A program made the position numbers and the translations under genes. The notes beneath the pieces were generated by a model, which had not been told where the DNA came from, made no database searches, and saw only the letters and a program-made list of their open reading frames with translations. From Syntrophaceae bacterium UBA6252 (GTDB taxonomy: Bacteria; Desulfobacterota; Syntrophia; Syntrophales; UBA6807), in assembly GCA_002441265.1 (NCBI GenBank), contig DJVQ01000045.1, positions 57,575-121,574 on the forward strand: a stretch of 64,000 bases of DNA, given 5' to 3'. Positions within the stretch are counted from its first letter, which is position 1; each line of letters begins with the position of its first letter. Below, one piece after another: positions 7,115 through 34,899 of the stretch.

Positions 7115-9427
7115 ATGACGGACCGTAGAATATTCTCCGCCCTTGCGGTGTTTCTCGTCATCGCCGCGGCGTTCGCCGTTTACGGGGAAATCTTCGATTA
7201 TCCCTTCGTTTTCGACGACGCTCCCAATATCCTGGAGAACGCGCGGATCCGTTCCCTGTCGAGCTTCCTGGGCTCGAGGGTCCTGTCCCAGGGCCGGGAG
7301 GCGGTCAATTTCACCTTCGCTGTGAACTACGCCCTCGGAGGATACGAAGTTTCCGGTTATCATCTCGGCAACATCCTCATTCATATCCTCAACGGCATTG
7401 TGGTCTATTTCCTGTCCCTCCTCCTTCTCCGGGGGATGGCCGGCAGGTCCGGCCCCGCCGGGGACGGCGGAAACGGCTCCGCCCGGCTCGTTTCTCTCTT
7501 CACGGCCCTTCTTTTCGTGGTCCACCCCCTTCAGACCCAGGCGGTGACTTACACGATCCAGCGGTACACCTCCATGGCGGCCCTGTTTTACATGGCCTCC
7601 ATCCTTTTTTACCTGGCGGCCCGGCTCCTTCAGAAAGGGGAACCGGCGACGGCGGTCCTTGAAACGGTGCGGGAGAATGGACCCGCCGACACCGGAAGGC
7701 CCGCCGGGAAGAAGAAAAAACAGAAGAAGCGGAATACGGCTCCCGCCGGGTACGGCACCGCTCCGGGACCGGCTGCGGAGAAGGCTGTCGCCGGTCCCCT
7801 TCCCGGACGGAGGACGGCATTCCGGATCGTTCTTTTCTTCGTTCTTTCCGTCCTGTGCGCCTTCGTGGCCTTTCTGTGCAAGGAAAACACGCTCAGCCTT
7901 CCCGTCGCCATCCTCCTGGTGGAATATTTCGCCGTCGACCGCTCCCGGGCGGGCTGGAAGAGGAAGATTCCCTGGATCGTCGCGGTCGTGGCCGCCGTGG
8001 CGGTCTTCTACCTTTATGTCTCCGGGCTGTTCCGGCCCGGATTCTCGTGGGGGCGGTTCCTTGCGGAACTGGACAGCCGAAGCCGGGAAACGGACGCCGT
8101 CGGCCGCTGGTCGTATCTGTTCACCCAGTTCAACGTCCTTGTCACCTATCTCCGGCTTTTCTTTTTTCCGGTGAACCAGAACCTGGATTACATGTATCCT
8201 TTCCGGACGGGCTTTTTCGGCGGGACGACGCCTTTTGCCTTTGCGTTTCTCCTTTCCCTCGCCGCCGGCGCTTTCCTGGTCCGCAGGAGATGGCCCGTTC
8301 TCTCCTTCGGCGTTTTCTGGTTCTTTGTCACCCTTTCGGTGGAATCGACGATCATCCCCATCCGGGACGCCCTCTTCGAGCACCGGATGTACCTCCCCCT
8401 TTTCGGGTGTGCCCTGGCCTTCGCCTGGACGGTGTTCCGGCTCTTCGGGAACCGGAAGGCGCTGGCGGCGGGCCTGTGCGTCATCCTCGTGGCGGCCCTC
8501 GGGACGGCATCCTTCCTGCGAAACCAGGTCTGGCGGGATGAAACCGTCCTGTGGTCCGACGTGGTCCGGAAAAACCCGGGAAGCGTCCGGGGGCTCAATT
8601 ACCTGGGGACTTTCCAGATGGAGAGGGGGCGACTGGAAGAGGCGGTGGCCCTTCTGGAGTGGGCTCTCCGTGTGAGCGCCGCCGGCGGAGACGCCATCAC
8701 CCATTACAACCTCGCCAATGTCCTGAAAAAAAAGGGAGACGGAACGGGTGCCGAGCGGCATTACCGCGAAGCCCTCCGGATGAATCCGGGGTATGCCGAC
8801 GCATATGTCAACCTGGGGAACCTTTATCTGGAACGGGGTGACGGGGGACAGGCCCTTGCCATGTATGAAAAGGCCCTGAAAGTCGACCGGTTCAGCAGGG
8901 GGGCCCGATACGGTCTTGCGTCGCTGCATCTCCGGAAGGGGGATTACAGGGGAGCGGCGGAGCAATTCAAGGTCCTCGTCAAGGCGGACCCGGCCGATGC
9001 GGCGGCCCGGAACAACCTGGCAAGCGCCTTCCTGGAAATGGGGGATGAGGCCGCCGCCGTCCGGGAACTGAATGAGGCCCTCCGGCTGAGACCGGATTAC
9101 GGAGAGGCCCGCTTCAACCTGGCGGTCATTTACGAGAGAAAGGGCGAATACGACCGGGCCCTTTCCCATTACGAAAAGGCGGCCGCATCGGGGGACCGTG
9201 CGGTCCCCGTGGCGTATTTGCGCGCCGCCAGGATCCATGCCATGAAGAAGGAAACGGACCAGGCCCTCCGCGGACTCGAGAGGGCCTTTGCGTCGGGCTT
9301 CCGGAACTGGAGCGCCGTCGAGTCCGACGAAGCGTTTGCGTCCCTCCGGTCTTTGGAACAATACCGGGAGCTTGGCGCCAGATACTCAAAACCCTCCCGG
9401 GAGAAGGAGAAAGAGTCTTCCCGATGA
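7115..9427 (+). CDS. TMTC-like (GT-C) membrane glycosyltransferase with C-terminal TPR array, paralogue 1
   Basis: FVFDD, YHLGNILIH, HPLQTQAVTYTIQR, KE, EHRMYLP and RNQVWRD motifs characteristic of TMTC1-4-like proteins; TPR repeats (YNLANVL, YVNLGNL, NNLASAF, FNLAVIY). ATG 7115 preferred over TTG 7103. Confidence 0.8.
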   Translation: MTDRRIFSALAVFLVIAAAFAVYGEIFDYPFVFDDAPNILENARIRSLSSFLGSRVLSQGREAVNFTFAVNYALGGYEVSGYHLGNILIHILNGIVVYFLSLLLLRGMAGRSGPAGDGGNGSARLVSLFTALLFVVHPLQTQAVTYTIQRYTSMAALFYMASILFYLAARLLQKGEPATAVLETVRENGPADTGRPAGKKKKQKKRNTAPAGYGTAPGPAAEKAVAGPLPGRRTAFRIVLFFVLSVLCAFVAFLCKENTLSLPVAILLVEYFAVDRSRAGWKRKIPWIVAVVAAVAVFYLYVSGLFRPGFSWGRFLAELDSRSRETDAVGRWSYLFTQFNVLVTYLRLFFFPVNQNLDYMYPFRTGFFGGTTPFAFAFLLSLAAGAFLVRRRWPVLSFGVFWFFVTLSVESTIIPIRDALFEHRMYLPLFGCALAFAWTVFRLFGNRKALAAGLCVILVAALGTASFLRNQVWRDETVLWSDVVRKNPGSVRGLNYLGTFQMERGRLEEAVALLEWALRVSAAGGDAITHYNLANVLKKKGDGTGAERHYREALRMNPGYADAYVNLGNLYLERGDGGQALAMYEKALKVDRFSRGARYGLASLHLRKGDYRGAAEQFKVLVKADPADAAARNNLASAFLEMGDEAAAVRELNEALRLRPDYGEARFNLAVIYERKGEYDRALSHYEKAAASGDRAVPVAYLRAARIHAMKKETDQALRGLERAFASGFRNWSAVESDEAFASLRSLEQYRELGARYSKPSREKEKESSR

Positions 9428-11958
9428 ACCGTTCCTCCATGACAAGAATCGTGACGGGCATTCCTGCGTGCCTGGCCCTCATTGCCCTCGTCTCTGTCTG
9501 CGTGTACGGGAGAATCTTCGATTTCCCCTTCGTTTTCGACAGCATCGACCACCTTGTGAACAGGTCCTTCATCAAAAATCTCCTCAGGGATTTCCAATGG
9601 AACCTCCTTCTCAGCCCGAGGAACCTGGTCAACCTGACCTTCTCCCTGAATTATCGGATCGGAGGACTCGACGTTTTCGGTTATCACCTGGTGAACCTGG
9701 CCGTTCACGTCCTGAACGGTTTCGTGGTGTTCTTTCTCTCCGGAGCCATTCTGGAGAGGCTTTCAGCCTCTTCGCCGGGGCCCGGGGGGGAAGAGGAAGT
9801 CGTCACGCACAGGCTTGTCGCCCTCTTCGCCGCCCTCATTTTCGTCGCCCACCCCGTCCAGACACAGGCGGTGACCTACACGATCCAGCGCTATACCTCC
9901 ATGGCCGCGCTCTTCTACCTCTCGTCCCTCCTCTTCTACCTCAAGGCGCGGACTCCCGGTCCGGAAGGGGTGGGGCGCATCGTTTTTCTGTATTACGGGC
10001 TCTTCGCCCTTTTGGCGGCCCTCGCCTTTCTGTCCAAGCAGAATGCGGCGAGCCTGCCGCTGGCGGTGCTGGCCGTGGAATATTTCTTCGTCGACCGGAC
10101 GGGAAAAGGCTGGCTCAGGAAAATACCCTGGATCGCATTGGGGTTCGCCCTGTGGACGGCCTTCATTTTCCTGTCCCTCGGAGTGTTCGACTCCCTCTCC
10201 GGGGAAGGCGTCCTGGAGGACCTTGCCCGGAGGAGCATGGAAACGGAGCTTGTCAGCCGGTGGACCTATCTCCTCACCCAGTTCAACGTCCTCGTGGAAT
10301 ACCTCCGCTTGCTTGTTTTTCCCACCGGCCAGTCCGTCGACTACATCTACCCCTTCCACCGGACGTTCTTCTCCGGCTGGACGCCCCTGGCCTTTCTTTT
10401 TCTCCTCGCCCTCCTGGCGGCGGCGGTCGTTCTGAGGAAGAGGCTTACGCTCTTCTCGTTCGGGGTGTTCTGGTACTTCATCACCCTGTCGGTGGAGTCG
10501 AGCGTTTTTCCCATCCGGGATGCCCTCTTCGAACACCGCCTCTACCTTCCCCTGTTCGGGTTCGCCGTCGCCCTCTCCGACGGGTTGTTCCGAATCTTCC
10601 GGTGGAAGAGAGTCCCGGCCGTCGTTCTCCTGGCGGTTATCGTCGCCGCCCTTGCCGTCACCGCCCATGTTCGGAACGAGGTCTGGCGGGACGGGATAAC
10701 CCTGTGGACGGACGTCATCGAGAAAAATCCCAGGAATGCGCGGGCATGGAACAATCTCGCCACGGTCCTCGCAGACGCGGGCAGGCTGGAGGAAGCGGAA
10801 GAGGACCTGGAAAAAGCATTCAGGATCAAGCCGGGTTATGAACTCGCCCGGATCAATCTGGGATTCGTCCTCCTGAAGAGGGACAGGCCCGCGCAGGCAA
10901 GGGAGGTCTTCCTGTCGGTCCTGGAGAAATACCCTTCCGAACTCCGTACCCGGATGGGTCTGGGGGAAGCCCTCCGGAAGGAGGGACGGCTTGAGGAGGC
11001 GGCGGCGCAATTCGAGGAGGTCCTCCGGCTGGACCCGACCGAGGAGAAAGCCGGGGTGTTCCTTGCCGAAATCCAGTCAGCCCGGGGGGAGACGGGAAAG
11101 GCGGAAAAAAAGCTTGCCGACTTCATGAACAAGGATTCCGGGGACCCCTCCATCCTCACCGCCATGGGAAACCTGAAACGGCAGGCCGGCGACCGGGAAG
11201 GCGCCCTCCGGTATTATCGGGAGGCCGTCGGCGCCGATCCGCGGTCCGTCGAGGCCCGGCTCAACCTTGCCGCCATGATGACGGAGGAAAAACGCTATGA
11301 AGACGCCGAGAAGCTCCTTGCCGAGGTGATCCGGATCGATCCCGGCCACAGCCGGGCGAGAAGCGCCCTCGGGGCGATCCTCCTGGTCCGGGGGAAGCTT
11401 CCGGAAGCACGCCGGGCGTTCGAGGAGGCCCTCCGTATCGACGGTGAGAACGGTGAGGCCCTCTTCAACCTCGCCGCCCTCGCCGAAGGGGAAGGGGATC
11501 TCGCCGCCGCGGCGGATTTGTACGGGAAGGCGCTGAAGGTGGATCCCCGGGACTGGGAGGCTTCCCAGAACCTCGGGGGGATCCTCATGGCCCGGGGGGA
11601 CCTCCGGGGCGCCCGGCAGCGGTTTGAAGCGTCCCTCGAAGTACGTCCCCGGAATGCCGTTCTTCAGAACCGCCTGGCCATCGTTCTTGCGAGAATGGGG
11701 GATTTCGACGGTGCCCGTGCCCGTTACGAGAAGGCGCAGGAAATCGATCCCGCCCTGAAGGCGGTCGTCCGGTACAACCTGGCCTGTCTCGAGTCCCTCC
11801 GGAACAGGAGGGAAGCCGCCTTCCTGCTGCTGGAAGAGGCCTTCCAGGCCGGGTACAGGAACTGCCGGAACGCCATGACGGACCCCGACCTGGAAAACAT
11901 CAGGAGCTACCCCGGTTTCCCCGGCCTGATGAAACGGTACTGCGGCGGGGGATCCTGA
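9424..11958 (+). CDS. TMTC-like (GT-C) membrane protein with long TPR array, paralogue 2
   Basis: FVFDS, YHLVNLAVH, HPVQTQAVTYTIQR, KQ, EHRLYLP and RNEVWRD motifs; about 10 TPRs and a terminal YNLAC...DPDLENIR cap; ATGA overlap with paralogue 1. Confidence 0.8.
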   Translation: MNRSSMTRIVTGIPACLALIALVSVCVYGRIFDFPFVFDSIDHLVNRSFIKNLLRDFQWNLLLSPRNLVNLTFSLNYRIGGLDVFGYHLVNLAVHVLNGFVVFFLSGAILERLSASSPGPGGEEEVVTHRLVALFAALIFVAHPVQTQAVTYTIQRYTSMAALFYLSSLLFYLKARTPGPEGVGRIVFLYYGLFALLAALAFLSKQNAASLPLAVLAVEYFFVDRTGKGWLRKIPWIALGFALWTAFIFLSLGVFDSLSGEGVLEDLARRSMETELVSRWTYLLTQFNVLVEYLRLLVFPTGQSVDYIYPFHRTFFSGWTPLAFLFLLALLAAAVVLRKRLTLFSFGVFWYFITLSVESSVFPIRDALFEHRLYLPLFGFAVALSDGLFRIFRWKRVPAVVLLAVIVAALAVTAHVRNEVWRDGITLWTDVIEKNPRNARAWNNLATVLADAGRLEEAEEDLEKAFRIKPGYELARINLGFVLLKRDRPAQAREVFLSVLEKYPSELRTRMGLGEALRKEGRLEEAAAQFEEVLRLDPTEEKAGVFLAEIQSARGETGKAEKKLADFMNKDSGDPSILTAMGNLKRQAGDREGALRYYREAVGADPRSVEARLNLAAMMTEEKRYEDAEKLLAEVIRIDPGHSRARSALGAILLVRGKLPEARRAFEEALRIDGENGEALFNLAALAEGEGDLAAAADLYGKALKVDPRDWEASQNLGGILMARGDLRGARQRFEASLEVRPRNAVLQNRLAIVLARMGDFDGARARYEKAQEIDPALKAVVRYNLACLESLRNRREAAFLLLEEAFQAGYRNCRNAMTDPDLENIRSYPGFPGLMKRYCGGGS

Positions 11959-11962
11959 GGAC

Positions 11963-12055
11963 TGACGGCTTCGAAAGGCGCACGAAACGTGACGCTTGGG
12001 TCCGGAACGGCGGTCCAGCCTTCCGGGATTTTTCCCTTTGCCTCCCGAAAAAGCG
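11963..12055 (+). repeat. Degenerate copy of dispersed intergenic repeat (TGACGGCTT...TTTTTCCC...CGAAAA)
   Basis: Starts TGACGGCTTCGAAAGG and ends TTTTTCCCTTTGCCTCCCGAAAAAGCG, matching the termini of the copies at 40975 and 56598. Confidence 0.4.
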
Positions 12056-12235
12056 TCGTTCGGATTGCCCGCCGGCTCATCAGCGTTGGTCATATATGAC
12101 CCGCAGCGTTCCATCGTAGCCAGAAATGCCGGTCTTAAAGGAGGCCGGCACCCCCCCGGAGCCGCCGAAACGCCGGATCGCAGGATGCATCTGACAAACG
12201 ATTGGCCTGGCATGATCGTTGCTTCATATGAGGTC

Positions 12236-13696
12236 ATGAGAACGCGGTCGATCCACAAGGGCATCCTTTTTTTCATCCTTTTCATCCTCATGGCGGGGAC
12301 GGCATGGGGTGCCGTTGCGCCTTCAGAAGAGGAGCAGGCCCTTCTCGACCGAATCAATGCCGCCCGCCAGGCCCCCTTCGCTGCGGCCGCCGCGATCGGC
12401 ATCGATCCGCAGCAGCTTGCGGCGGCGCGGCCGGAGCTTCTGGAACTGCCGGAAGAAGGAATGTCCCAGCTCAAGTGGACGTCACTCCTTTCGGATACCG
12501 CGAAAGCCCACAACGAAGACATGCTCGCCCGGGGATACGTGGACCGTGTGAACCCCGAGGGACTGACGGCGGGGGATCGGGCGGCCGCGGCCGGCTACTG
12601 GGCCGTCTCCGTGGGCGAGTCCATCGGCCTGGTCGGTTTTGCCAACTTTCTTGCCCCCGATGCGGCCGTTTCGATTCTTTTCGAGAACATGCTCCGGGAA
12701 GAACTCCTGAATCCGTCGGATGAAAAGTGGAATCTTCTGAATCCCGGCTTTTCCGAGGTAGGCATCGCTGTCGGAACGGGAGTCCTCGAGTACGGGGGCT
12801 ACCTGTTCAACGTGTACATCGCCGTATGCGATTTCGGGGAGCCCTGCCGGGCAGGCTCCGAGGAGGAACTTTTCCTCGCGCTGGTGAACCAGGCCCGCTC
12901 GAATCCCGAGGGATTCCTCCTGTCCGTGGGTCTTTCGGCGGACCGCCTCATGCCGGACCTTCAGGAAGGGCTGGATGCCTTTTATGCCGGCATGCCCCCC
13001 CTCTTTCCCGTCAAAACCCTTTTCCAGGCGGCCAGGGCCCATGCCGTGGACATGCTCTCCGCCGGCTACTTCGCCGCCGATTCCCTCGACGGCAGGACCC
13101 CCATGGACCGGATCCTGGAAGCGGGGTACGAGGAAGCCGTGGAATCCGGCGAGACGAGGGGCCTTCTGGCCCTTTGCGGGGACCGGGTCCCCGCGGAACA
13201 GGTGAAGGCTTTCTTCCAGCGTTCGGCGATCGTCGAGTTGACCCGGACGGCGCCGGAAGACCGGCTGATCTTCAATCCTTCGCTGCGCGAAGCGGGCGTC
13301 GGGTTTGCCGAAGGGGATTCGGAGAGCCTCGGCGGCATCTGCGGGGACCATGTCGGCCTCCTGGTCGCAGAGTATGGCACGAGAATTGCAATAGAATCGG
13401 GCATTGTCGGTGTCGTTTTTTCCGATCTCGACGGGAACGGTCTTCTCGATCCCGGCGAGGCTCTTTCAGGCGTTGAGGTTACCATCTCCGGTTCAGACGT
13501 TACCCAGGTCCTCCTTACGGGGGAAGGGGGCGGCTTCCAGATCGTCCTTCCCGAGGGGCCGTACGAGGTTTCGGCGGCGGGAACGGACCCGGTGGAAAGC
13601 GTTGAACTGACGGTTCCCGGAAACGGGGAAAGCATTTTCATTCCCCTTTCCGTGACGGTCCCGGTCGATGAGATCGCGGCGGAAGAGAACGGGTAA
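12236..13696 (+). CDS. Secreted protein with two CAP (SCP) domains and a C-terminal SdrD-B/carboxypeptidase-regulatory-like beta domain
   Basis: GAGG RBS then ATG 12236 with a signal peptide (MRTRSIHKGILFFILFILMAGTAWG-A). Two repeats LLDRINAARQ/FLALVNQARS...AKAHNEDM/ARAHAVDM...NLLNPGFSEVGIA/LIFNPSLREAGVG. C-terminal GVVFSDLDGNGLLDPGEALSGVEV. Confidence 0.8.
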   Translation: MRTRSIHKGILFFILFILMAGTAWGAVAPSEEEQALLDRINAARQAPFAAAAAIGIDPQQLAAARPELLELPEEGMSQLKWTSLLSDTAKAHNEDMLARGYVDRVNPEGLTAGDRAAAAGYWAVSVGESIGLVGFANFLAPDAAVSILFENMLREELLNPSDEKWNLLNPGFSEVGIAVGTGVLEYGGYLFNVYIAVCDFGEPCRAGSEEELFLALVNQARSNPEGFLLSVGLSADRLMPDLQEGLDAFYAGMPPLFPVKTLFQAARAHAVDMLSAGYFAADSLDGRTPMDRILEAGYEEAVESGETRGLLALCGDRVPAEQVKAFFQRSAIVELTRTAPEDRLIFNPSLREAGVGFAEGDSESLGGICGDHVGLLVAEYGTRIAIESGIVGVVFSDLDGNGLLDPGEALSGVEVTISGSDVTQVLLTGEGGGFQIVLPEGPYEVSAAGTDPVESVELTVPGNGESIFIPLSVTVPVDEIAAEENG

Positions 13697-13703
13697 AAAG
13701 GTC

Positions 13704-13732
13704 TTGACAATTACGAAGAATTTCATTAGCGT
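13704..13732 (+). promoter_or_regulatory. Sigma70-like promoter upstream of the Cys-rich secreted protein
   Basis: Perfect -35 TTGACA (13704-13709), 17-bp spacer, -10 TAGCGT (13727-13732) in an AT-rich intergenic stretch. Confidence 0.6.
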
Positions 13733-13868
13733 TATCGCAATTTGACTTCTGGACTATAAAAAAGGAAAGGAGGGGGGTGCGGAAAGAAAGGATACAGCGG
13801 AATTCTCTGAGAGGTTTTGAATTTAGGGAAATATGTCAGGAAAACACTAAGAATTGGAGGAGAAAGAC

Positions 13869-14984
13869 ATGAAGAAAAGAATGGTATTCACGGCTCTTCT
13901 GGCGATGGTCCTCGCACTGTCCTTCGCCTGGACGGCCATGGCGGCGGATGACGCCTGCGTCGACTGCGGCAAGTGCCCTCTGCGCCAGATCGAGTGCTGT
14001 GTCAGCAGCGGCCAGGCAACGCCCTACACGAGCTATTTCGACTATGAAACGGGCTACGGCTACTGCGCCACGAGCGCCTATGACAAAGACTGCAAGGTCA
14101 TCTTCGACCTTTGTAACTGCGATTCCCCGAACACGAACTTCGTGTCCGGGAAGAAGATCGGCATCCGGATGGAAATCCTGACCTCCGGCGTTTACTGGAG
14201 CGATGTGTATCCCTCCATGATGGCCTACACGTCAGCCGCGCTTGCCTGCGCCGGCACGTCGACGACCTACAGCTATACGTGGACCGACATCGATTACTAT
14301 GACAAGGCCGGCAGCCCGACCTCGCCGGTTTCGATCAGCAACACCTCCTGCGAAGTTCCCTGCGACGCGATGGCAGTTGAACTCCAGAGCGCCAACGAAA
14401 CGGGATACGAGATTCCCGCCGAAATGGTCACCAATCAGGTGAAGTACTGGTGGATCGATGTTCCCCCGATGTTCCTCAATGATTCGGAAATCGAGGGCCG
14501 GGAAGGCGAAACCGTTACGATCGAAGTGTGCCTCCAGGGCGCCAGCGGCGGGATCTGCCGTGAGTGCAACGACATCTGCTGCTGCACCATCGACGTCGGC
14601 ACGCTGTGCTGCGAGTCTGGCGACCAGACCTGCATCTACTTCCCCTATGTCGTGACCGGAATCCAGCCCTGGTGGACTGGTGTTGCGATCGCGAACTACG
14701 GCGGAACCTCTTCGCTCGACCTGACGCTGACCCTGACCGACGCCACGGGCGCGAAGTTCACCTGGGTGAAGACCGGTCACACGGCGGCAATGTGGACCTT
14801 CATCCTCGACTCCGTCCTGGCCAACTTCAGTGGCACGCCGGCAGCCGGTGCGGCAATGCTGAAGGTTGAATCTGATCAGGGCTGGATCGACGGCTACAGC
14901 TTCCTCACCGACGGCACCTTCGGTGGTAGCACGCTGGCGAGAGGCTGCTGCACGATCTGCTTCGACTACAGCAAGCTTGACTAA
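13869..14984 (+). CDS. Cys-rich secreted protein, candidate major surface-layer protein
   Basis: GGAGGAG RBS, ATG 13869, Sec-pathway signal peptide MKKRMVFTALLAMVLALSFAWTAMA. 24 Cys counted; acidic and Thr/Ser-rich; C-terminal IYFPYVVTGIQPWWTGVAIAN domain; own promoter and terminator. Confidence 0.7.
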   Translation: MKKRMVFTALLAMVLALSFAWTAMAADDACVDCGKCPLRQIECCVSSGQATPYTSYFDYETGYGYCATSAYDKDCKVIFDLCNCDSPNTNFVSGKKIGIRMEILTSGVYWSDVYPSMMAYTSAALACAGTSTTYSYTWTDIDYYDKAGSPTSPVSISNTSCEVPCDAMAVELQSANETGYEIPAEMVTNQVKYWWIDVPPMFLNDSEIEGREGETVTIEVCLQGASGGICRECNDICCCTIDVGTLCCESGDQTCIYFPYVVTGIQPWWTGVAIANYGGTSSLDLTLTLTDATGAKFTWVKTGHTAAMWTFILDSVLANFSGTPAAGAAMLKVESDQGWIDGYSFLTDGTFGGSTLARGCCTICFDYSKLD

Positions 14985-15027
14985 TTACTGACCGCAACGA
15001 CACAAGCAAAGGTCAGTGAATGAATGG

Positions 15028-15067
15028 GAATGGGCAGGGTCTTCGAAAGGCCCTGCCCATTCTGTTT
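15028..15067 (+). terminator. Intrinsic terminator-like hairpin after the Cys-rich gene
   Basis: GAATGGGCAGGG-TCTTCGAAAGG-CCCTGCCCATTC followed by TGTTT. Confidence 0.7.
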
Positions 15068-15120
15068 CGGGCAGGCAAACGGAAGAAAAGGGGACAAAGA
15101 GCCCCGGCGGGGAATGGCCG

Positions 15121-15810
15121 ATGACCAGAACAGCGACCGCATTCTTCGGGGGAATCCTGATCGTTTTGATCGCGGCCTTTGCGGCATGGGGCGCGGAGGA
15201 AGGGACCGGCCCGTTCATGCCGTCATGGGAACCCGGGCAGACGTGGACGCTGCGGCTTGAAGCCGCGAAGTGGGAAAGCGGACAGGAAAACGGGAACGGC
15301 ACCGGAGCCATCCTCCTGCGGTACCGGGTCCGGGGAATGGAGGAAGCGGGAGGGGAGACCTGCTGGGCCGTGGAAGTTTCCGGGGAAGGGGCAGGCCTGT
15401 CTCTCGAGGCGACCCTTTTTTACCGGGCAGCGGATTTCTCCCTTTCCATCGCGGAAGTGACCCGAACCCGGATGGGGGAGACCGGCAGGGAGACATGGAC
15501 ATTTCCCAGGGAGGCGCCGGCGGTTGCGAAATTCGCGGACATTCCGCTGGAAACCCCCGTGTTTCCCCTCACGGCCCCGTCGAGAAAAACCTTCGAAATG
15601 GAAAGGCGGATCGGGAACGACCTTGCCTTTCGGGAGAAAGTGGTTCAGTCCGTGGATGCCGCCCCGGGGAACGGCCGGGCACCGTCCTATGAAGTGATCT
15701 GCAAGAACAAGGACGGGATCGTGCTGTTCGCCCAGCGCTGGGAAAAGGGCAAGCCCTGGGCCGTCGAGGGACATTCGGGGGACCGGAAATACAGGATGGA
15801 GGAGCCATGA
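15121..15810 (+). CDS. Secreted hypothetical protein (beta-rich)
   Basis: Signal-peptide-like N-terminus MTRTATAFFGGILIVLIAAFAAWG-A from ATG 15121; ATGA overlap with the next gene. Confidence 0.7.
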   Translation: MTRTATAFFGGILIVLIAAFAAWGAEEGTGPFMPSWEPGQTWTLRLEAAKWESGQENGNGTGAILLRYRVRGMEEAGGETCWAVEVSGEGAGLSLEATLFYRAADFSLSIAEVTRTRMGETGRETWTFPREAPAVAKFADIPLETPVFPLTAPSRKTFEMERRIGNDLAFREKVVQSVDAAPGNGRAPSYEVICKNKDGIVLFAQRWEKGKPWAVEGHSGDRKYRMEEP

Positions 15811-18230: not shown

Positions 18231-18331
18231 GTCGGGCGGACGTTCATAAGGAAACGACGAAGCGAAGTCGCCGGACCGCGCGCCGCCCGGGCGGGTCCGG
18301 TGGATGCAATACACTCCCTTGGAGGATGACG

Positions 18332-19449: not shown

Positions 19450-19571
19450 GACGGCGGGACAACCTGCCGTCGGGCGCACGACCCCGGGGAAGGGACGTCT
19501 CTGAGAAGGTCGTGGACGCATCCGGACGGTGAGATCCTCCGACCTGCCGGACGATCTCGAATCGAAGGGCG

Positions 19572-20438: not shown

Positions 20439-20475
20439 GGTCGGGACGGAACGGCGGAGAACGAGGTTTTCATTC

Positions 20476-27414: not shown

Positions 27415-27416
27415 AT

Positions 27417-27473
27417 GTAGTCCGGGGCTTCAGCCCCGGCGGCGGAAACGCCGGCCCTGAAGGGCCGGACGAC
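27417..27473. repeat. Inverted pair of GTAG-type REP palindromes (REPIN-like)
   Basis: GTAGTCCGGGGCTTCAGCCCCGG, short spacer, then CCGGCCCTGAAGGGCCGGACGAC, whose reverse complement is GTCGTCCGGCCCTTCAGGGCCGG. Confidence 0.65.
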
Positions 27474-27493
27474 GGATTCGGAGAGAGGAGCCA

Positions 27494-28423
27494 ATGAACT
27501 GTCTTGTCCTGGGCGGAGCGGGATTCATCGGGTCTCACCTGGTGGACGCCCTTGCCGGAAGGGGCCACCGGGTCCGGGTTTTCGACCTTCCCAACATCAG
27601 CGCGGAGAACCTGCACCGTTCCCTTCCCTCCATCGAGGTCCTGGGGGGGGATTTCGAGAACCGGCGCGCCGTGGCCGAAGCCCTCGAAGGGATGGAGACG
27701 GTCGTTCATCTCGTCTCCACGACCCTCCCGGGGCCGTCGAACGAGAATCCCGGGTACGACGTGGAGACGAACGTCATCGGCTCCATCCACCTCCTGGAAG
27801 AGGCCGTTCGCCAGGGGGTCCGGAAGGTGGTCTTCGCCTCCTCCGGCGGGACGGTCTACGGGATTCCCGAGACCCTTCCCATTCCCGAATCCCACGGGAC
27901 GAACCCCATCTGCTCCTACGGGATCACCAAGCTCGCCGTCGAAAAGTACCTCACCCTGTTCCACCATCTCCACGGCCTCCGGCACACCGTCCTCCGGCTT
28001 GGAAATCCTTACGGGGAACGGCAGCGGACGAGCGGCGTCCAAGGCGCCGTGGCGGTCTTTCTCGGAAGGACGCTGCAAAACGAGGAGATCACCATCTGGG
28101 GGGACGGGACCGTGGCCCGGGATTACTTTCACGTGAGCGACCTGACCCGGGCCCTGCTCCTTGCCGTCGAGAAGGACCTCCCTTCCCCGGTCTACAATGT
28201 GGGAAGCGGCACCGCCACGTCCCTCCTCGAGATCCTGGAGACCATCGGCGCCGTGACGGGCCGGCGACCCGAGGTCCGGTTCACGCCGGCGAGAAAGCTC
28301 GACACCCCCCTCAACTGCCTGGACATCCGGAAAATCCGGACCGAGGCGGGTTGGGTCCCGACGGTGTCCCTGCGGGAGGGGATCGCCAGGACGTGGGAGT
28401 GGATGCAATCGAAAGGCCGGTGA
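27494..28423 (+). CDS. NAD-dependent epimerase/dehydratase (extended SDR)
   Basis: GGAGFIG, SSGGTVYG, YGITK and RLGNPYG motifs. Confidence 0.9.
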   Translation: MNCLVLGGAGFIGSHLVDALAGRGHRVRVFDLPNISAENLHRSLPSIEVLGGDFENRRAVAEALEGMETVVHLVSTTLPGPSNENPGYDVETNVIGSIHLLEEAVRQGVRKVVFASSGGTVYGIPETLPIPESHGTNPICSYGITKLAVEKYLTLFHHLHGLRHTVLRLGNPYGERQRTSGVQGAVAVFLGRTLQNEEITIWGDGTVARDYFHVSDLTRALLLAVEKDLPSPVYNVGSGTATSLLEILETIGAVTGRRPEVRFTPARKLDTPLNCLDIRKIRTEAGWVPTVSLREGIARTWEWMQSKGR

Positions 28424-28427
28424 CGGA

Positions 28428-30617
28428 ATGACCGCCCCGGGGCATGCGGGAACACCGGGCAGGGACAGGCTGCCTTTCGCCGTCCTTGCGGCGTTCCTCG
28501 CCCTTCTCGGGACGCTCGTGTTTCTCCGCGTCCAGGAAACCCGGCAGGAACCTTTCTTCGACGTTCTGAGCTACGCCTCGAAGGCGAAAGCCTTCTGGGA
28601 TGCCGCCGGGGAGGGGAAACCCTTCAACCCCCTCGACCTGGAACCGGCCATCCGGCCGCCGGGGACGGTCCTCGTCACGTATCCCTTCGGATTTTCCGAT
28701 GAATACCGGGGATTTTATTTCCGCACGGTTTTTCTTCCCGTGGTCCTTTTCGCCCTCGCTCTCTGGACGGCGGGGAGAAGGGCCCGGGAGCGGAAGGGGG
28801 GCGCCTGGCTCGTTCTCGTCCTCGTCGTCGCGTTTTCCTCGCTCCCCCTGTTCTATCAATTCGAACCGGCCCGGCCTTCCCCTGTCTATCCCTGGCCGAC
28901 CTGCTGGGGGCTTGTGGACACCGCGCTCGGGGCCGTCGCCGCCCTCGCGGCGGCCCTCGTCGCCCGGGGGGCCCAGGCCCGCTCCACGGCCCTGACGGCC
29001 GCCGGCATCGCTGCCGCGGCCTTCTGCCTTTTCATCAAGCCCTCGGGGATCCTCATCATGGGGGCCGTTTTCCTCGTGTGGTTCCTTTCCCTTTTCCCCT
29101 GGAGCAAACAGGGACGCGCGGACCGGTATGTCGCCGCCTGCCTCGGTGCGTTCCTTCTCGTTTACGGCGCCGCCCTGTACGCCGCCCTGCTCTCCAGGTA
29201 TCTCTCCCCGGAGACCCTGTCCCTCGGGGGAAAGGCCATGGAGGTTCTCTTGAGCGAGTGGCCCCTCGAACGGTGGGGGCCGGTCCTCCTGCGGCAGGTC
29301 CATTTCAGCGTGGGGCTCCACTGGCTCGTGTTCCTTGCAGCAATCGCCGTCCTGGCCGGCGTTTCACGGCGGAGCCGGGAGACGGAACGGGAAGGGGAAT
29401 CCCCGTCCCGCTCCTGGATTCCGGCGACCCTTGCGGTGCTCGGGATCGGACTGTGGTTCTGGCTCGTTGCCACGGGGAAATCCCAGGTACGGTATTTCTA
29501 CCCTTTTCTTCTCATGGCCGTCGTCCTCGTCTTCCCCCCGCTCATCGAGGTCCTGGAACGGACGGGGAATTCCCTGAAAAAGGTCCTTGCGGGCCTCGCC
29601 CTTCTTCCTCCCCTTTTGCTTATCGTTCTCCTCCTTCCCGGGAAACCCTTCCCGTGCGCCGGTCCCTTCCTCGGGGTGCACGTCGATTCCGGGGGGCTTG
29701 CCGACGTGGCCAGGCAGGCGGGAGCCCTGGTCGAGGAGGCGAGAAAAAGGGAAAGGAACCTCCTCGTGTACCTTCCTTCGGAGGACCACGGCAATGCCGT
29801 GTTCGCAGGGGTGGGTGGTTACAGGCGCCTGATCGACCCGGGAAAGCCCTCTTTCTTTTCCAGGACCGCCATCCGGTGGGACCGCCCGCCCGTCATCGTC
29901 CTTGCGGAGATGGCGTCGGCCGATTTCATCCTTTTCGAACCGGTGTCCCCTCCCGCCGAGGCGGCAAGGGTGCTCCAAGCGGCCTTCGCCCCCGATTTCC
30001 CCTCGGAAAAGCGCCTCGTCCGGTCGTGGCTCACCGGACTCGATCCCTCTTCGTCGGGAGTCGCGGTCCGCTCGGAAACGTCTTTGCGCCTCCTGGAGAT
30101 CACCGATCGGGAGCGCTTCTCACTGGCCGTCGACGGTCTGCGGAACCGGGACGGGTGGCGGGAAATCTTCGAGGAGGCGAATCCGCGGCGCTGGCTCACC
30201 GGGGAGGGGATGGAGCGGATGCTTTCCGGCGGGGCGTCCGTCGCCGGAGGAATCCGCTTCGGGGGCAGGTTCTCCCTGGAAGGCCTTGAAATGCGGCGGG
30301 ACGAAAACGGCCTGGTCCTGGATCTTTTCTGGAAAAGCCAGGACGAGGCCAGGCTCGACGGGATTGTCTTCCTCCACATGGTGAACGCCGAAGGCGTCAT
30401 CCTGGCCCAGGGGGATTACGGCCAGGATCCCGGAAAGCGGGCCGTTCGGAAGGATGCATGCTGGCGGGACCGCGTCCGGATCCCTGAAAACGACCTGAAG
30501 GGGGCGGCGGCCCTGGCCCTGGGAATCTACAAACCGCCGGATCTTTTCCTTCTTCCCGACGGGGGAAGAACGGACTGGGGCGGCAAACGGCTTCTCGTGC
30601 CCCTGGAAAGGAAATGA
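28428..30617 (+). CDS. Polytopic membrane protein, putative GT-C glycosyltransferase/ligase with C-terminal periplasmic beta domain
   Basis: Acidic residue in the first loop (FFDVLSY), RPPG, IKPSG and QVRYFYP motifs; >10 TM segments; soluble tail FLHMVNAEG...WRDRVRIP...LGIY typical of GT-C-associated domains. Confidence 0.55.
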   Translation: MTAPGHAGTPGRDRLPFAVLAAFLALLGTLVFLRVQETRQEPFFDVLSYASKAKAFWDAAGEGKPFNPLDLEPAIRPPGTVLVTYPFGFSDEYRGFYFRTVFLPVVLFALALWTAGRRARERKGGAWLVLVLVVAFSSLPLFYQFEPARPSPVYPWPTCWGLVDTALGAVAALAAALVARGAQARSTALTAAGIAAAAFCLFIKPSGILIMGAVFLVWFLSLFPWSKQGRADRYVAACLGAFLLVYGAALYAALLSRYLSPETLSLGGKAMEVLLSEWPLERWGPVLLRQVHFSVGLHWLVFLAAIAVLAGVSRRSRETEREGESPSRSWIPATLAVLGIGLWFWLVATGKSQVRYFYPFLLMAVVLVFPPLIEVLERTGNSLKKVLAGLALLPPLLLIVLLLPGKPFPCAGPFLGVHVDSGGLADVARQAGALVEEARKRERNLLVYLPSEDHGNAVFAGVGGYRRLIDPGKPSFFSRTAIRWDRPPVIVLAEMASADFILFEPVSPPAEAARVLQAAFAPDFPSEKRLVRSWLTGLDPSSSGVAVRSETSLRLLEITDRERFSLAVDGLRNRDGWREIFEEANPRRWLTGEGMERMLSGGASVAGGIRFGGRFSLEGLEMRRDENGLVLDLFWKSQDEARLDGIVFLHMVNAEGVILAQGDYGQDPGKRAVRKDACWRDRVRIPENDLKGAAALALGIYKPPDLFLLPDGGRTDWGGKRLLVPLERK

Positions 30618-30618
30618 G

Positions 30619-31464
30619 ATGGGTTCGGAGCCATTGAGCGGGAGGGAAAAAGCGGGGGCGGCGGTTCCGCCCGGCGACGGCGGCCGCGTGCGCCGCGAGA
30701 TCGCCCACGGCCGGTACCTTTCCGCCCGAGGGCCGGAGAACGTCTGGAACTGGGGAAGCCCGGCGGGAAGGCTCCGGTGGCGGAGAAGGGAAGCCCTGCT
30801 GACGGCAGGGATCCGCCCGGAGGCGGAGGTCCTGGAGATCGGCTGCGGAACGGGATCCCTGGCGGCGACCCTGGCCGGTCTCGGCGCGTCCGTGACGGCC
30901 ATGGACGTGTCGGAACCGCTCCTCGCCGAAGCGGGGAAGAAAATCGGGCAAGGGAGGGCCTTTTTCCTCAGAGGGGACGCCCACGGCCTTCCCTTCCGGT
31001 CGGGATCCTTTCACCGGGTTCTCGGGAGTTCCATCCTCCACCACCTGGATCTCGACAGGGCGCTGCCGGAAATCCTCCGGGTCCTGAAGCCGGGAGGCCG
31101 CATCGCCTTCGCCGAGCCGAACCTGGTGAACCCCCAGGTGCTGGCGATGAAAAAGCTGCCCTTTTTCGGGAGATGGATGGGGGAATCCCCCGACGAGACC
31201 GCTTTCATCCGGTGGAAACTGGGCCGTCTCCTCCGTTCCAGGGGCTTTTCCAGGGTCCGGATCGTCCCCTTCGACTTCCTTCACCCCCTGCTGCCCGCCG
31301 GGGTGCTTGATTTTTCGGCCGCCTTCTGTTTAATGCTGGAGAGAATCCCTCTCCTCAGGGAGGCGGCGGGGTCGCTGTTCATCTCCGCGGAAAAGGCGGG
31401 GGACGGCTCCGGGACGGAAGGAATGACGCCGGGGAGGGGCCGGACCCGCGCGCCGGGAGATTGA
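30619..31464 (+). CDS. Class I SAM-dependent methyltransferase (Methyltransf_11-like)
   Basis: LEIGCGTG, GDAHGLPF, ILHHL and RVLKPGG motifs. Confidence 0.88.
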   Translation: MGSEPLSGREKAGAAVPPGDGGRVRREIAHGRYLSARGPENVWNWGSPAGRLRWRRREALLTAGIRPEAEVLEIGCGTGSLAATLAGLGASVTAMDVSEPLLAEAGKKIGQGRAFFLRGDAHGLPFRSGSFHRVLGSSILHHLDLDRALPEILRVLKPGGRIAFAEPNLVNPQVLAMKKLPFFGRWMGESPDETAFIRWKLGRLLRSRGFSRVRIVPFDFLHPLLPAGVLDFSAAFCLMLERIPLLREAAGSLFISAEKAGDGSGTEGMTPGRGRTRAPGD

Positions 31465-31489
31465 TTTCAAGACAGGGAAGGGGCGATCG

Positions 31490-32899
31490 TTGACGAAAGA
31501 GGAACGGGTCCGTTACTTCGATTCCGTGGCGGCCGAAAGGAAGAAATGGAGACGGAAGGGGGCATTCTACCACGGGGAACTGGAAAGGTATCTCCGGCTC
31601 GTGGTTCCTCCCGGCTCGTCGGTCATCGAGATCGGCTGCGGAACGGGGGAACTCCTGAACGCCCTCCGGCCGGTAAGGGGCCTTGGAATCGACATCAGTC
31701 CCGGGATGGTCGCCGAAGCCAGGAAAAACTTTCCCCATCTCCGGTTCGAGACGGGGGACCTGGAGGATCTCCGGATCGGCGAGACATTCCAGTACGTCAT
31801 CCTGGTGGAGACCATCGGACACGTCGACGACATCCAGAGGGCCCTCCGGGAGCTGCACAAGGTCTGCGATCCCCGGACCCGGGTCATTCTCGTCTCTTAC
31901 AATTACCTCTGGGAACCGGTCCTCAAGTTCGGCGAGGCCGTCGGGCTCCGCATGAAGCAGCCGCTCCAGCACTGGCTGCCCATGACGGACATGGCCAATC
32001 TCCTGTTCCTGGCGGATTTCGAGGTGGTCCGGCGGGAAAGCAAGATCCTCGCACCGGTCCGGGTGCCCTGCGTTTCCGCCTTCGCGAACCGCGTCCTGGC
32101 CAACCTCCCCCTCATCAGCCGCCTGTGCCTGAACGGAATCCTCATCGCCCGCCCCATGACCCCGAGGAAGGACCCCGGGCGGATCTCCACGTCCGTCATC
32201 GTGCCCTGCCGGAACGAAAAGGGGAACATTGCGCCGGCGGCGGCCAGGATTCCCGCCATGGGCTGCCGGACGGAAATCCTTTTCGTGGAGGGCCATTCCG
32301 GAGACGGTACCCTGGAGGAGTGCGAGCGGGTGCGGGACGCCCGCCCCGACCGGGAGATCCGCGTCTTCCGGCAGCCGGGGGAGGGAAAGGGGGACGCCGT
32401 TCGGGAGGGCTTTTCCAGGGCGACCGGTGACGTCCTCATGATCCTCGACGCCGATCTCACCGTCCCCCCGGAAGACCTCCCCAAGTTTTTCGAAGCCCTC
32501 TCGAAGGGGAAGGGGGAGTTCATCAACGGGTCCAGGCTGGTCTACCAGATGGAGGACAGGGCCATGCGTTTTCTGAACCTCCTGGGGAACAAGTTCTTCA
32601 GCATGGCCTTCGGCTACCTCCTGGAACAGCCGATCCGGGACACCCTGTGCGGGACCAAGGTGCTGTGGCGGGAGGACTATGAAAACATCGCCGCCGGAAG
32701 GTCCTACTTCGGGGAACTCGACCCCTTCGGGGATTTCGACCTCCTCTTCGGCGCCGCCCGGCTGAATCTCAAGATCGTCGAGATCCCAGTGAAATACCGG
32801 GAACGGACCTACGGGAGGACGCAGATCCAAAGATTCCGGCACGGGTGGCTTCTCCTGAAGATGACCTTCGTCGCCATGAGGAGGATCAAATTTTTGTGA
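31490..32899 (+). CDS. Bifunctional SAM-methyltransferase-like / GT2 glycosyltransferase
   Basis: N-terminal IEIGCGTG; C-terminal VIVPCRNEKGNI, ILDADLT, DTLCGTK and DPFGDFDLLFGA motifs (DPM-like GT2). Confidence 0.88.
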   Translation: MTKEERVRYFDSVAAERKKWRRKGAFYHGELERYLRLVVPPGSSVIEIGCGTGELLNALRPVRGLGIDISPGMVAEARKNFPHLRFETGDLEDLRIGETFQYVILVETIGHVDDIQRALRELHKVCDPRTRVILVSYNYLWEPVLKFGEAVGLRMKQPLQHWLPMTDMANLLFLADFEVVRRESKILAPVRVPCVSAFANRVLANLPLISRLCLNGILIARPMTPRKDPGRISTSVIVPCRNEKGNIAPAAARIPAMGCRTEILFVEGHSGDGTLEECERVRDARPDREIRVFRQPGEGKGDAVREGFSRATGDVLMILDADLTVPPEDLPKFFEALSKGKGEFINGSRLVYQMEDRAMRFLNLLGNKFFSMAFGYLLEQPIRDTLCGTKVLWREDYENIAAGRSYFGELDPFGDFDLLFGAARLNLKIVEIPVKYRERTYGRTQIQRFRHGWLLLKMTFVAMRRIKFL

Positions 32900-32926
32900 C
32901 GATTTTGACGTTCCGATTACATTTTT

Positions 32927-32955: not shown

Positions 32956-32961
32956 GCCCCG

Positions 32962-33190: not shown

Positions 33191-33198
33191 GAGGAAAC

Positions 33199-34899
33199 AT
33201 GAAGAGGGTGGTCAAAAAGATCCCGATGTGGTCATTTATGGCCTTGGCGCTTGCCATTATCCTTACGCTGTCCATGGCAAAGCCGGCGGCCGCGGGGTGA
33301 GGCACGTGCTACTTTACGCTGGCCGTGACTGTCAGCCCGATTGCTATAGCAGGAAATGTGGAAGTTACCCCCGTAACGGAAAAACTGCAGAAGGTGACAT
33401 GCTACAATGAGGAGAGTGGCTCGGTTGAAGGCAAATGCAACTACGTTACGGAAGGGAGTATCTCCTATTATCTGACCGCCACCGCGAACGAGGGATACAC
33501 GTTCTCACGATGGGAGGGAGAAGTCTCGAGCACCAACCAGACGGTTACCATCACGCTCCCGGCAACGGCGGACTCGACGACGAAAAACTTCAAGGCGATT
33601 TTTGTGCAAAGGACCCCGACGCCCCCCACTGCGAACGCCGGGGCCGACCAGATAGTCGAATCCGGCACTCTGGTCACCCTCGACGGATCGGGATCGTCCG
33701 ACAGCGACGGGACCATCGTTTCGTACAGTTGGGAGCAGCTCTCGGGGACAGGAGTCGCCCTTTCCGACAACAACGCCCAGAAACCCACCTTCACGGCGCC
33801 CAATGTGGCGGCGGGTTCGACGGCGGCCCTGACCTTCCGTCTCCGCGTGTATGACGATGAGATGATGTCCGGAACGGACACCGTGACCATCACCGTGGGG
33901 TCGTCCAACGAGGCCCCCACTGCGAACGCCGGGGCGGACCAGTCGGTTCAGACGGGAACGACGGTCACCCTGAACGGGACCGGGTCGTCCGATCCCGAGG
34001 GAGGCGCGCTTACCTATGCCTGGACCCAGCTCTCCGGGACCGAGGTCACGTTGTCCGACCCGACTGCGTCGAGTCCCGCCTTCACCGCTCCCGATGAGGC
34101 GGGGACCCTCGTGTTCCAGCTCACTGTCACAGACAGTTACCAGGCTTCGGACACGGACACGGTCACGATCACCGTCTCGGTTCCGAGTGCATCGGCGGCG
34201 TACAGGCTCTACTACCCCCACGTGGTGAGCCAGCTTTCCGCCGGCGGCGACAAGGTCTGGGAGACGGACATCATCATCGTCTATACCGGCACGGAGGAAT
34301 CCTTCACGGGGACCCTCCTGGCCTACGACGCCTCGGGCGCGGAAGTCGGCACGGCCGTCGGGGTGACCCTGGCCCCCCTGGGAAGGATCGTCTACCCGGT
34401 GGGTGCGACCTTCGAATCGCCGGAGACGATCCGGTACATCGTTCTCGAGTCGGAACAGGACGGCGCCGTGGGCTATGAGCTGCTCGGCGTGGACGGCCTG
34501 GCCCGGACGACCTTCGAGGCGTACCAGGTTTCCGGGGATGCGGAATACCAGCCCCCCATCGCCCAGAGCCGGGCTTCGTCCGCCCTTCCCTCTTCGTCGG
34601 GCGTGTTCATGACGCTGGACCAGGCGGGCTGGACCGGCATCGTCTTCGTGAATCCCGGCGACGCCGAGGTCACGATCGAACTCAAAGCCTACAATGACGA
34701 AGGCGAGGAGATCGCGACCGATTCCTTCGACCTGGCGGCGGGAGGCTATCGCTCCGGGTTCGCTTCCGGGTTCTTCCTGGAGAAAGGGGCCCTTGAAGGC
34801 GCCACCCACATCACCTATTCGGCGGGCGGCGACGTGATCGCCGTCCAGTTTACCGGCGACTTCAGCGGCGCCATGCTGGATTCGCTTCCCGGCGCCTGA
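33199..34899 (+). CDS. Secreted PKD/K319-like repeat protein with in-frame TGA at codon 34 (putative selenocysteine, UxxC); alternatively a nonsense pseudogene
   Basis: GAGGAGG RBS then ATG 33199, in frame with ORF 33325. Reads MKRVVKKIPMWSFMALALAIILTLSMAKPAAAG-TGA-GTCYFTL...; then an InlB-B-like repeat (LTATANEGYTFSRWEG), two ANAGADQ PKD/K319-like repeats and two shared surface domains. Confidence 0.75.
33301..33350 (+). promoter_or_regulatory. Candidate bacterial SECIS hairpin
   Basis: GCTGGC(33318-23)-CGTGACT-GTCAGC(33331-36): 6-bp stem with one G-U pair; loop starts 23 nt after the TGA and has G in position 2; a possible lower GCTA/TAGC pairing. Confidence 0.55.
33623..34180 (+). repeat. 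Two intragenic PKD/K319-like domain repeats (291-nt period)
   Basis: CCCCCACTGCGAACGCCGGGGC(C/G)GACCAG occurs at ~33623 and ~33914. Confidence 0.75.

Follow-up and report, generated by a model that had tools for sequence, protein, structure and literature searches.

We analyzed a 64,000-nucleotide stretch of the genome of Syntrophaceae bacterium UBA6252 (contig DJVQ01000045.1; G000:C21:57575-121574), hereafter called the window, which carries the genes of a putative surface layer (S-layer) along with genes for glycan synthesis and export. G000 is the source genome, other G numbers are comparison genomes, and L numbers are fetched stretches; one of the window proteins has a homolog, 95% identical, that carries the source label Syntrophales. 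The window is the middle of a surface-coat island of ~100 kb, extending from a type II secretion system (T2SS) operon upstream of the window (C21:10036-21077, with E at 10036-11187 followed by F, G, J, K, L, and D) to glycan genes ending at window position 54887. The coat genes of the window, all on the forward strand, begin with two TMTC-like proteins, namely protein 1 (7115-9427), with a GT-C-type membrane domain, an array of tetratricopeptide repeats (TPR), and FDD in the first outer loop, and protein 2 (9424-11958), with a predicted GT-C fold, a TPR array, and FDS in the first loop. They are followed by the genes of a secreted CAP-CAP protein with a C-terminal SdrD_B-like domain (12212-13696; the start is uncertain, and the longest open reading frame, or ORF, runs from 11996), a secreted Cys-rich protein with 24 cysteines, which is the candidate major S-layer subunit (13869-14984), a beta-type secreted protein of no known family (15121-15810), a Cys enzyme combining a GP42-transglutaminase fold with a PPC-like domain and four ASRAH-like repeats (15807-18230; below, the TG-like protein), a small lipoprotein (18332-18769), and a CmcI or rhamnosyl O-methyltransferase-like protein (18766-19449). 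The ABC glycan exporter genes wzm and wzt, the latter with a Wzt_C domain, occupy 19572-21777 (wzm 19572-20438; wzt to 21777) and precede a glycan synthesis block (21767-32899) and the gene of a probable secreted selenoprotein with PKD domains (33199-34899).

A first-pass annotation had described 7115-34899 as a putative complete coat system. The genes it listed are all present: the two membrane proteins with TPR arrays, the CAP-CAP, 24-Cys, beta, TG-like, and lipoprotein genes, cmcI, wzm-wzt, the glycosyltransferases, and the ORF with an in-frame TGA. These bounds are too narrow, since the T2SS operon lies upstream of the window and the glycan genes continue to 54887. The overlapping stop and start codons that were said to join the block are found at four junctions only (TMTC1/TMTC2, beta/TG, lipoprotein/cmcI, and wzt/methyltransferase), while gaps of ~100-250 nt separate TMTC2 from CAP, CAP from the Cys-rich gene, the latter from beta, TG from the lipoprotein, and cmcI from wzm, and a hairpin follows the Cys-rich gene.

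Comparison of 17 loci from outside the genus (12 genomes of the phylum survey and five further loci, with possible overlap between the two sets) reveals a conserved core in Desulfobacterota: the T2SS operon, (a sensor block and CAP-CAP), the Cys-rich, beta, and TG-like genes, the lipoprotein, a UshA-like selenoprotein, and wzm-wzt. The gspD gene lies within ~10 kb upstream of the Cys-rich gene in 11 of the 17 loci and is directly adjacent in six of these; the other six stretches end before that point. The TG-like gene is present in 13 loci, the beta gene is kept between the Cys-rich and TG-like genes, and the lipoprotein is also kept. In G414, G366, G394, and G195, wzm-wzt come next after the module, as they do in the window and in G001 of the same genus. 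A secreted UshA-like gene with an in-frame TGA and a GGUCU-type hairpin was found in seven loci (L050, L054, L056, L062, L007, L010, and L013); it scores 93.7 bits against NF041198, under the cut-off of 275, and its place is taken by the CmcI-like gene in the window. The source genome has two UshA-like selenoprotein genes outside the window (C50:111030 and C41:44666). The known S-layer genes of diderm bacteria slr4, npdA, and vapA also adjoin T2SS clusters (PMC7821379, PMC10765051, PMC4483657). With the secreted block conserved, placed behind a T2SS operon like known S-layer genes, and followed by wzm-wzt, the earlier proposal of a surface-coat island with a Cys-rich structural subunit is supported; the T2SS itself lay outside the view of that proposal.

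The CAP-CAP gene stands directly upstream of the S-layer candidate in islands of two subunit types. In G328 (L081:3949-5331) and G411 (L094, at the end of G411:C22), the slot behind CAP holds a different family of secreted proteins, and therefore we regard it as a swappable subunit position. In its N-terminal part, this second family weakly matches the ASRAH-like profile (E 8.5e-6, a single target). The G328 protein has no Pfam or NCBIfam match, and only hypothetical plasmid proteins were found in a homology search with it; by their motifs, the slot proteins of G328 and G411 may be NpdA-like. Searches of G411, G328, and G322 found neither the TG-like nor the Cys-rich family. Downstream of gspD, C21:21349-27293 encodes a binding protein, a histidine kinase, a response regulator, and a TonB-dependent receptor, and many islands, with either type of subunit, have the same block behind gspD (L049, L053, L057, L009, L010, L081, and L082); it is likely an envelope-sensing regulator of the coat. 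One module of Desulfobacterales contains an 888-aa membrane protein with TPRs of another family (L010:14152-16818), possibly an alternative GT-C transferase.

A word search gave 28 homologs of the Cys-rich protein and a profile search 422 clusters (50% identity); the 147 retrieved members of at least 340 aa have a median of 18 cysteines. No meaningful Pfam match was found in the 17 members scanned, with the Slr4 family profile PF19526 included. The window protein has a signal peptide and a predicted beta-rich fold, with an N-terminal Ig-like domain (residues ~27-249) that resembles the Ig folds of pilins and adhesins (best Z ~7, a value often seen), followed by a C-terminal domain at 252-362. 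The predicted model of the latter aligns with TM1070 (Z 11.5, rmsd 2.5, 102 residues) and with ASRT (Z 8.8, rmsd 2.9, 93 residues), the only two chains that reach Z of at least 8 for this model. The Trp and Asn that define the ASRAH fold (PMC2739507, where ASRT is described as a tetramer) are conserved: W268 is invariant in one alignment (A1), and both residues reach at least 90% in another (A5). Foldseek with the Cys-rich model yielded low-TM adhesin and pilin matches only, and PDB sequence searches with the two alignments gave nothing meaningful. In L012, two paralogs of the family lie within 10 kb of each other with short coiled-coil repeat genes between them, a possible case of subunit variation.

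Directly 3' of the Cys-rich gene, a 17-bp RNA hairpin (15027-15063; -35.7 kcal/mol, z -6.6, 0 of 200 shuffles) separates this gene from the downstream ones, which speaks for the S-layer reading; it is likely an attenuator or a stabilizer. A promoter scan of 11900-15200 found no promoter. Fifteen RNA runs from six studies cover part of 11900-19500, and four of them were examined, all as assembled contigs. In X1 and X2, two of these RNA sets, the contig depth is ~400-740 on the Cys-rich gene and ~1-12 on most other genes, though contig depth cannot rank genes; CAP has a depth of 35-109, partly via a contig that extends into the Cys-rich gene. X12 covers mainly the Cys-rich gene and X6 is flat at 3-9. 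We treat these depths as a hint only and do not count them as evidence.

The C-terminal domain of the Cys-rich protein is common to the TG-like and PKD proteins as well, a link that the first-pass annotation had missed. An iterated profile found this ASRAH-like domain in ~10 other secreted proteins of the source genome, with repeats fused to RCC1-like, subtilase-like, and other domains (names by inspection). The number of copies is restricted: among 66 complete ORFs from at least 14 genomes, 42 have four copies, eight have two, five have three, 11 have one, and none has five or more. Each of the three-copy ORFs contains weak or spurious repeats, and the one-copy ORFs are eight Cys-family members and three small proteins. 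Small secreted proteins with a single ASRAH-like domain are also encoded at G000:C32:51351-51914 and C16:531-1229. The domain was found in 13 of 13 genomes with the Cys-rich family, with 3 to 64 matches each (up to 64 in one genome), vs. none of 24 others. Tandem extracellular ASRAH copies have been described in Chloroflexi and actinobacteria, and ASRAH domains have been predicted to bind sugars (PMC2739507). A single copy in the subunit and four copies in the cargo would fit a pseudo-tetramer that replaces a four-fold node of the lattice, by analogy with the ASRT tetramer. No description of the four-copy cassette or of the Cys-rich subunit family was found in the literature searched.

The GP42 transglutaminase of Phytophthora has a Cys-His-Asp catalytic triad, in which His directly follows Cys. 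The TG-like protein matches TGase_elicitor (E 7e-16) and, across the active-site region, GP42 itself (PDB 3tw5; E 7e-7). All 15 of the 15 homologs keep its Cys and Asp, whereas the His directly after Cys is present in three of them and is replaced by Phe in the window protein; the label of a cross-linker proposed earlier is therefore weak and likely wrong. Judged by its sequence, the protein is probably an active Cys enzyme put into the coat by its four repeats. As a protease or another acyl-transfer enzyme, it may serve the proteolytic maturation of the coat or its cross-linking.

The two TMTC-like proteins are 39% identical. The membrane domain of protein 2 folds as GT-C in the predicted model (pLDDT 82.9, pTM 0.87), with structural matches to Pmt1-Pmt2 (Z 18.3), Pmt4 (18.2), AglB (17.7), and ArnT (17.1). 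In the acidic motif of the first outer loop, D39 is found in 58 of 58 sequences and DD in 50; protein 2 has DS. At E <= 1, neither membrane domain has a Pfam TMTC/PMT membrane-domain match; a PDB sequence search with the membrane domain gave nothing meaningful, and Foldseek with the model returned nothing at E <= 0.001, its best rows being GT-C. The family is large (2272 matches at E <= 1e-20), and three of the 120 homologs listed are named 'protein O-mannosyl-transferase' by their source. The coat had been proposed to be built around these proteins, with co-occurrence of TMTC-like and Cys-rich genes across Desulfobacterota as a check, and this proposal is not supported: none of the 17 non-congeneric stretches with the Cys-rich family contains a TMTC gene, so that TMTC as a core component is rejected. 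At the genome level TMTC is found in eight of 12 Cys-positive vs. six of 12 Cys-negative genomes, the 12 Cys-positive genomes include none of the 16 in which a close TMTC (E <= 1e-60) occurs, and the 16 matches of G414 all lie at least 245 kb away. A partial exception is G179, with a distant TMTC on a contig that carries cassette proteins. Tandem TMTC-like arrays unlinked to the S-layer module occur in L068, L070-L072, and L079, with eight matches in G015 and 16 in G414.

Nevertheless, some TMTC genes do belong to such islands. The closest homologs, in G411 (54%) and G328 (49%), both come right after the same sensor block and are followed by CAP and the different secreted protein; the G328 island continues with the lipoprotein and wzm-wzt. 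In a midpoint-rooted FastTree tree of 36 domains, the two window proteins form one clade with those of G001, G322, G411, and G328 (support 1.0), apart from all pilA-linked copies, and five of the six clade members lie in T2SS islands. Of the suggested role of TMTC in the coat, the association thus stands through the same-island genes of G001, G328, and G411, and the core status does not: the clade exists but is optional, as no Cys-family stretch of the 17 holds a TMTC gene.

We put the probability of the following reading at roughly 0.6: the island encodes a T2SS-exported S-layer, whose Cys-rich subunit tetramerizes via its single ASRAH-like domain, while the TG-like, PKD, and other proteins dock via four or two copies. 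The Cys-rich protein is likely the major subunit and the candidate for a new S-layer family that had no earlier description. After export through the Sec pathway, it would fold in the periplasm with disulfides, as its signal peptide and conserved cysteines suggest, and would then leave the cell through the T2SS linked to it in the island. Four single domains would meet at the four-fold axis, given the predicted fold and the ASRT tetramer. One four-domain chain, or two two-domain chains, could replace such a tetramer and display enzymes and adhesins; repeat counts and co-occurrence are observed, and docking is our extrapolation from them. By the Aeromonas precedent, Wzm/Wzt would export a capped polysaccharide, which is likely joined to the lipid A core and might serve as an anchor of the layer. 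Finally, in lineages with TMTC-like GT-C enzymes, these would likely modify Ser/Thr of the island's periplasmic beta-sandwich substrates with single sugars; elsewhere they would be dispensable. A bolder version is less likely: a disulfide-rich, T2SS-exported square S-layer would serve as a modular display board with pseudo-tetramer proteins at its four-fold sites, the TMTC clade would glycosylate the coat, and one cargo would bear a surface-exposed N-terminal selenocysteine.

A number of observations weigh against the S-layer reading. The lattice, oligomer, docking, secretion, and glycosylation are predictions from genes and models, and the model of the Cys-rich protein is of moderate quality (pLDDT 73, pTM 0.62). 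The protein's Atlas similarity to a cluster in which 12% of the members are Slr4 (0.83) is a lead only, and, to our knowledge, high Cys content is unusual among S-layer proteins. The family is patchy, being found in 12 of 400 genomes of the phylum and in one of 40 relatives, and its homolog in G001 (L003:1432-2799) has an internal stop or frameshift in an otherwise intact island. In the source genome the T2SS operon lies on the same contig as the Cys-rich gene but ~50 kb away, and C11 carries another T2SS-like locus. The cassette ORFs were chosen from the top matches and the module loci. The 13 domain-positive genomes represent seven families, with seven genomes in one family, and are hence not independent; moreover, the Cys-rich family by which they were selected has one such domain of its own, and G001 sequences were part of the profile.

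The destination of the exported glycan bears on another reading, in which the layer would be a glycoprotein coat whose secreted subunits receive, through the TMTC-like enzymes, the glycan that Wzm/Wzt export, in the manner of Geobacillus slg/wsa. It agrees with the GT-C fold and its top matches to protein-modifying enzymes, with the spread of the island TMTC clade over three families, and with the Ser/Thr content of the Cys-rich (18.5%) and PKD (22%) proteins. The first-pass annotation had likewise taken the TMTC-like proteins for the transferases, as no ligase was recognized in the window. Indeed, the source genome yielded no PglB/STT3 match, and in the window neither Wzy_C nor STT3 was matched; the argument fails, however, since lpxC and two genes of the O-antigen-ligase/Wzy_C family are present elsewhere in the genome. 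Further, the complete islands of G414, G366, and G394 keep wzm-wzt without TMTC, and the TMTC query found nothing in the G366, G394, G195, and G421 genomes. It also counts against this reading that the TMTCs of eukaryotes attach single mannoses, not polymer chains, with a lipid monophosphate as the donor, and we consider the reading improbable. Capped, length-controlled chains serve both O-antigen and S-layer glycan pathways, and Wzt_C and a fusion of methyltransferase, coiled coil, and GT4 fit such a chain. With wzm, wzt with its C-terminal binding domain, the methyltransferase/coiled-coil/glycosyltransferase protein, and lipid A and ligase-family genes all present, the gene set corresponds to the ABC-transporter-dependent O-antigen pathway, with the acceptor assigned by analogy. 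In A. salmonicida, wzm and wzt flank the T2SS genes and vapA, and the O-antigen of lipopolysaccharide is lost in wzt mutants (PMC4483657). Because of this precedent, the ligase-family genes and lpxC, and the TMTC-free islands that keep wzm-wzt, lipopolysaccharide appears a likelier acceptor than protein, and the protein destination claimed earlier is likely wrong.

The ASRAH-like repeats could also be a tag for secretion or anchoring that surface proteins with loose attachment have in common, recognized by the T2SS or binding sugars of the O-antigen, with the Cys-rich protein forming a filament, sheath, or matrix instead of a 2D lattice. The predicted sugar binding of ASRAH domains and the likeness of the N-terminal domain to pilin and adhesin Ig folds point in this direction, and the same co-occurrence would be expected. 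Such a tag would account neither for the four or two copies, never five, nor for the single copy in the central gene, nor for the swap of subunit families in the same slot, and we find it unlikely. A narrower alternative concerns only the last step of the S-layer model, with which it is compatible: the TMTC pair may act on the type IV pilin or on the pseudopilins of the T2SS and be a mere passenger in a plastic glycan island. Type IV pilin genes adjoin TMTC homologs in seven of 23 fetched loci, and the pilA locus of the source genome (C49) has no TMTC, the two window genes being the only clear copies in the genome; no relevant literature linking TMTC to pilin was found. Given that the window proteins fall outside the clades of pilA-linked copies and that their own clade is mostly found in T2SS islands, this alternative is conceivable but not favored.

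The PKD protein is a further candidate cargo of the proposed S-layer. Its ORF starts with ATG at 33199, preceded by a ribosome-binding site, and encodes a signal peptide that ends in A-x-G right before an in-frame TGA (33298-33300), so that the sequence reads G-U-G; the frame is then open for 532 codons and covers a variable InlB-B-repeat-like domain, two PKD domains, and two ASRAH-like repeats. We consider it probable that this TGA encodes selenocysteine, which would stand at or next to the mature N-terminus. The genome has selA, tRNA-Sec, and fdhA genes with in-frame TGA, and four database homologs (62-99% identical, one of them the window's own) all start after the TGA position and are intact. 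In the L027 allele, the only one fetched as DNA, G-TGA-G and a 6-bp stem are kept, although the N-terminal domain is strongly diverged. This stem belongs to a SECIS-like hairpin (33318-33336), whose geometry fits the bSECIS consensus (loop of 3-9 nt, G within its initial two nucleotides, spacing 16-37, energy <= -7.5; PMC13188914), with an energy of -7.5, or -6.4 as a bare stem. It is less probable that the TGA is a true stop in a pseudogene or split gene. In favor of a stop, the hairpin is weak and has no GGUCU loop, which is typical of most clear selenoprotein genes in this genome; among 3000 random TGA sites, ~6% have a GU/GG loop and get to -6; conserved codons overlap with the stem; and no homolog with Cys at the selenocysteine position was found. 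In a genome-wide coding-model scan the site scored low, and a plain motif scan was too noisy.

No ortholog of the PKD selenoprotein was found outside close relatives, and a 2026 selenoproteome review nowhere uses the terms PKD, S-layer, secreted, or signal peptide in its main text. The L027 allele has no Cys of the UxxC motif, so that a thioredoxin-like role is not supported and the earlier label of a redox accessory is weak and likely wrong. A lipobox reading of AAAG-U was rejected, as a polar, Pro-containing stretch parts it from the hydrophobic region. The N-terminal domain (33301-33620 vs. L027:10100-10420) is strongly diverged amid glycan genes that are 93-99% identical, which suggests diversifying selection on this exposed domain. 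The gene is followed by an intrinsic-terminator-like hairpin with a U run (34917-34965; -32.3 kcal/mol, z -6.4).

The glycan synthesis block encodes methyltransferases, the methyltransferase/coiled-coil/GT4 fusion, two GT4 enzymes, an epimerase, a methyltransferase-GT2 fusion, and a 729-aa membrane protein that may be GT-C-like. Further glycan genes of the island (36185-54887) encode a sulfatase-fold membrane protein, GT2 enzymes, a WecA-like protein, a Wzx flippase (46889-48187), a DegT aminotransferase, a sugar transferase, and a CapD-like dehydratase; this stretch includes initiating transferases, and its gene order is the same in G001. Between them, 35115-36392 holds an apparent gene of a membrane acyltransferase, whose start region contains a short repeat and which is seemingly frameshifted or split. 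At the other end, GC content of window positions 1-5000 is 53-56% vs. 60-67%, upstream of two genes of the GDP-mannose dehydratase family, which suggests recently exchanged glycan genes. Beyond the island, 55240-64000 contains housekeeping genes: atpI, atpB, FlgT-like, FecR, pgsA-like, tRNA-Val (60287-60361), thrS, and infC.

Taken together, the island is a conserved surface system, probably a T2SS-linked S-layer type with a new subunit family and a four-copy cassette. It offers a candidate S-layer family for bacteria that live syntrophically or reduce sulfate and that depend on their outer surfaces for contact between cells in anaerobic digesters and sediments. By the one-versus-four rule, an S-layer of a diderm could take up enzymes and adhesins with its symmetry intact, and the cassette is a possible display tag. 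The island also provides candidate substrates for a clade of bacterial TMTC-like proteins and adds a probable secreted selenoprotein with selenocysteine at the mature N-terminus.

Several known systems resemble parts of this island. Tandem SLH and CWB2 modules of Gram-positive S-layers bind the wall polymer and form sets of three in both subunit and cargo; like the ASRAH-like domain, they are shared by the S-layer protein and many cargo proteins, whereas in this island the copy number is one for the subunit and four for the cargo. Geobacillus slg/wsa has an oligosaccharyl:protein transferase inside the cluster; in the window no Wzy_C/STT3 match was found, and several membrane proteins are unassigned. 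Eukaryotic TMTC1-4 (GT105) share with the window pair a GT-C membrane domain followed by a TPR array and an acidic first-loop motif; the pair has no TMTC-type Pfam match, and its bacterial relatives often adjoin pilin genes. The TG-like protein shares Cys and Asp with Phytophthora GP42 but, like most of its homologs, lacks the His and is fused to four ASRAH-like repeats. The domain described here matches the ASRAH superfamily (ASRT, TM1070) in its conserved Trp and Asn and in its predicted fold, a beta-sandwich of eight strands; in the passages of PMC2739507 that define the superfamily, three families are named and sugar binding is proposed, with no mention of Desulfobacterota, a T2SS link, or a structural role. 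Similarly, the sections of an S-layer survey (preprint 10.1101/2024.05.28.596244) that deal with Desulfobacterota mention them only for beta-helix layers. Slr4 of Pseudoalteromonas, which forms a square (p4) lattice (PMC7821379), and NpdA of Paracidovorax and Delftia (PMC10765051) are described, like the Cys-rich protein, as having a signal peptide, no known domains, and an adjacent T2SS; the Cys-rich protein has no Pfam Slr4 match and is known here from genes and a model. Also close is the A-layer/wbsalmo locus of Aeromonas salmonicida (vapA, sps T2SS; PMC4483657), where an S-layer gene, a T2SS, and an ABC-2 glycan exporter are likewise found together in a diderm. It has a different subunit family, which we set apart from VapA without sequence comparison, and the Desulfobacterota system differs by its CAP, TG-like, lipoprotein, selenoprotein, and sensor genes and by its genome-wide cassette proteins.

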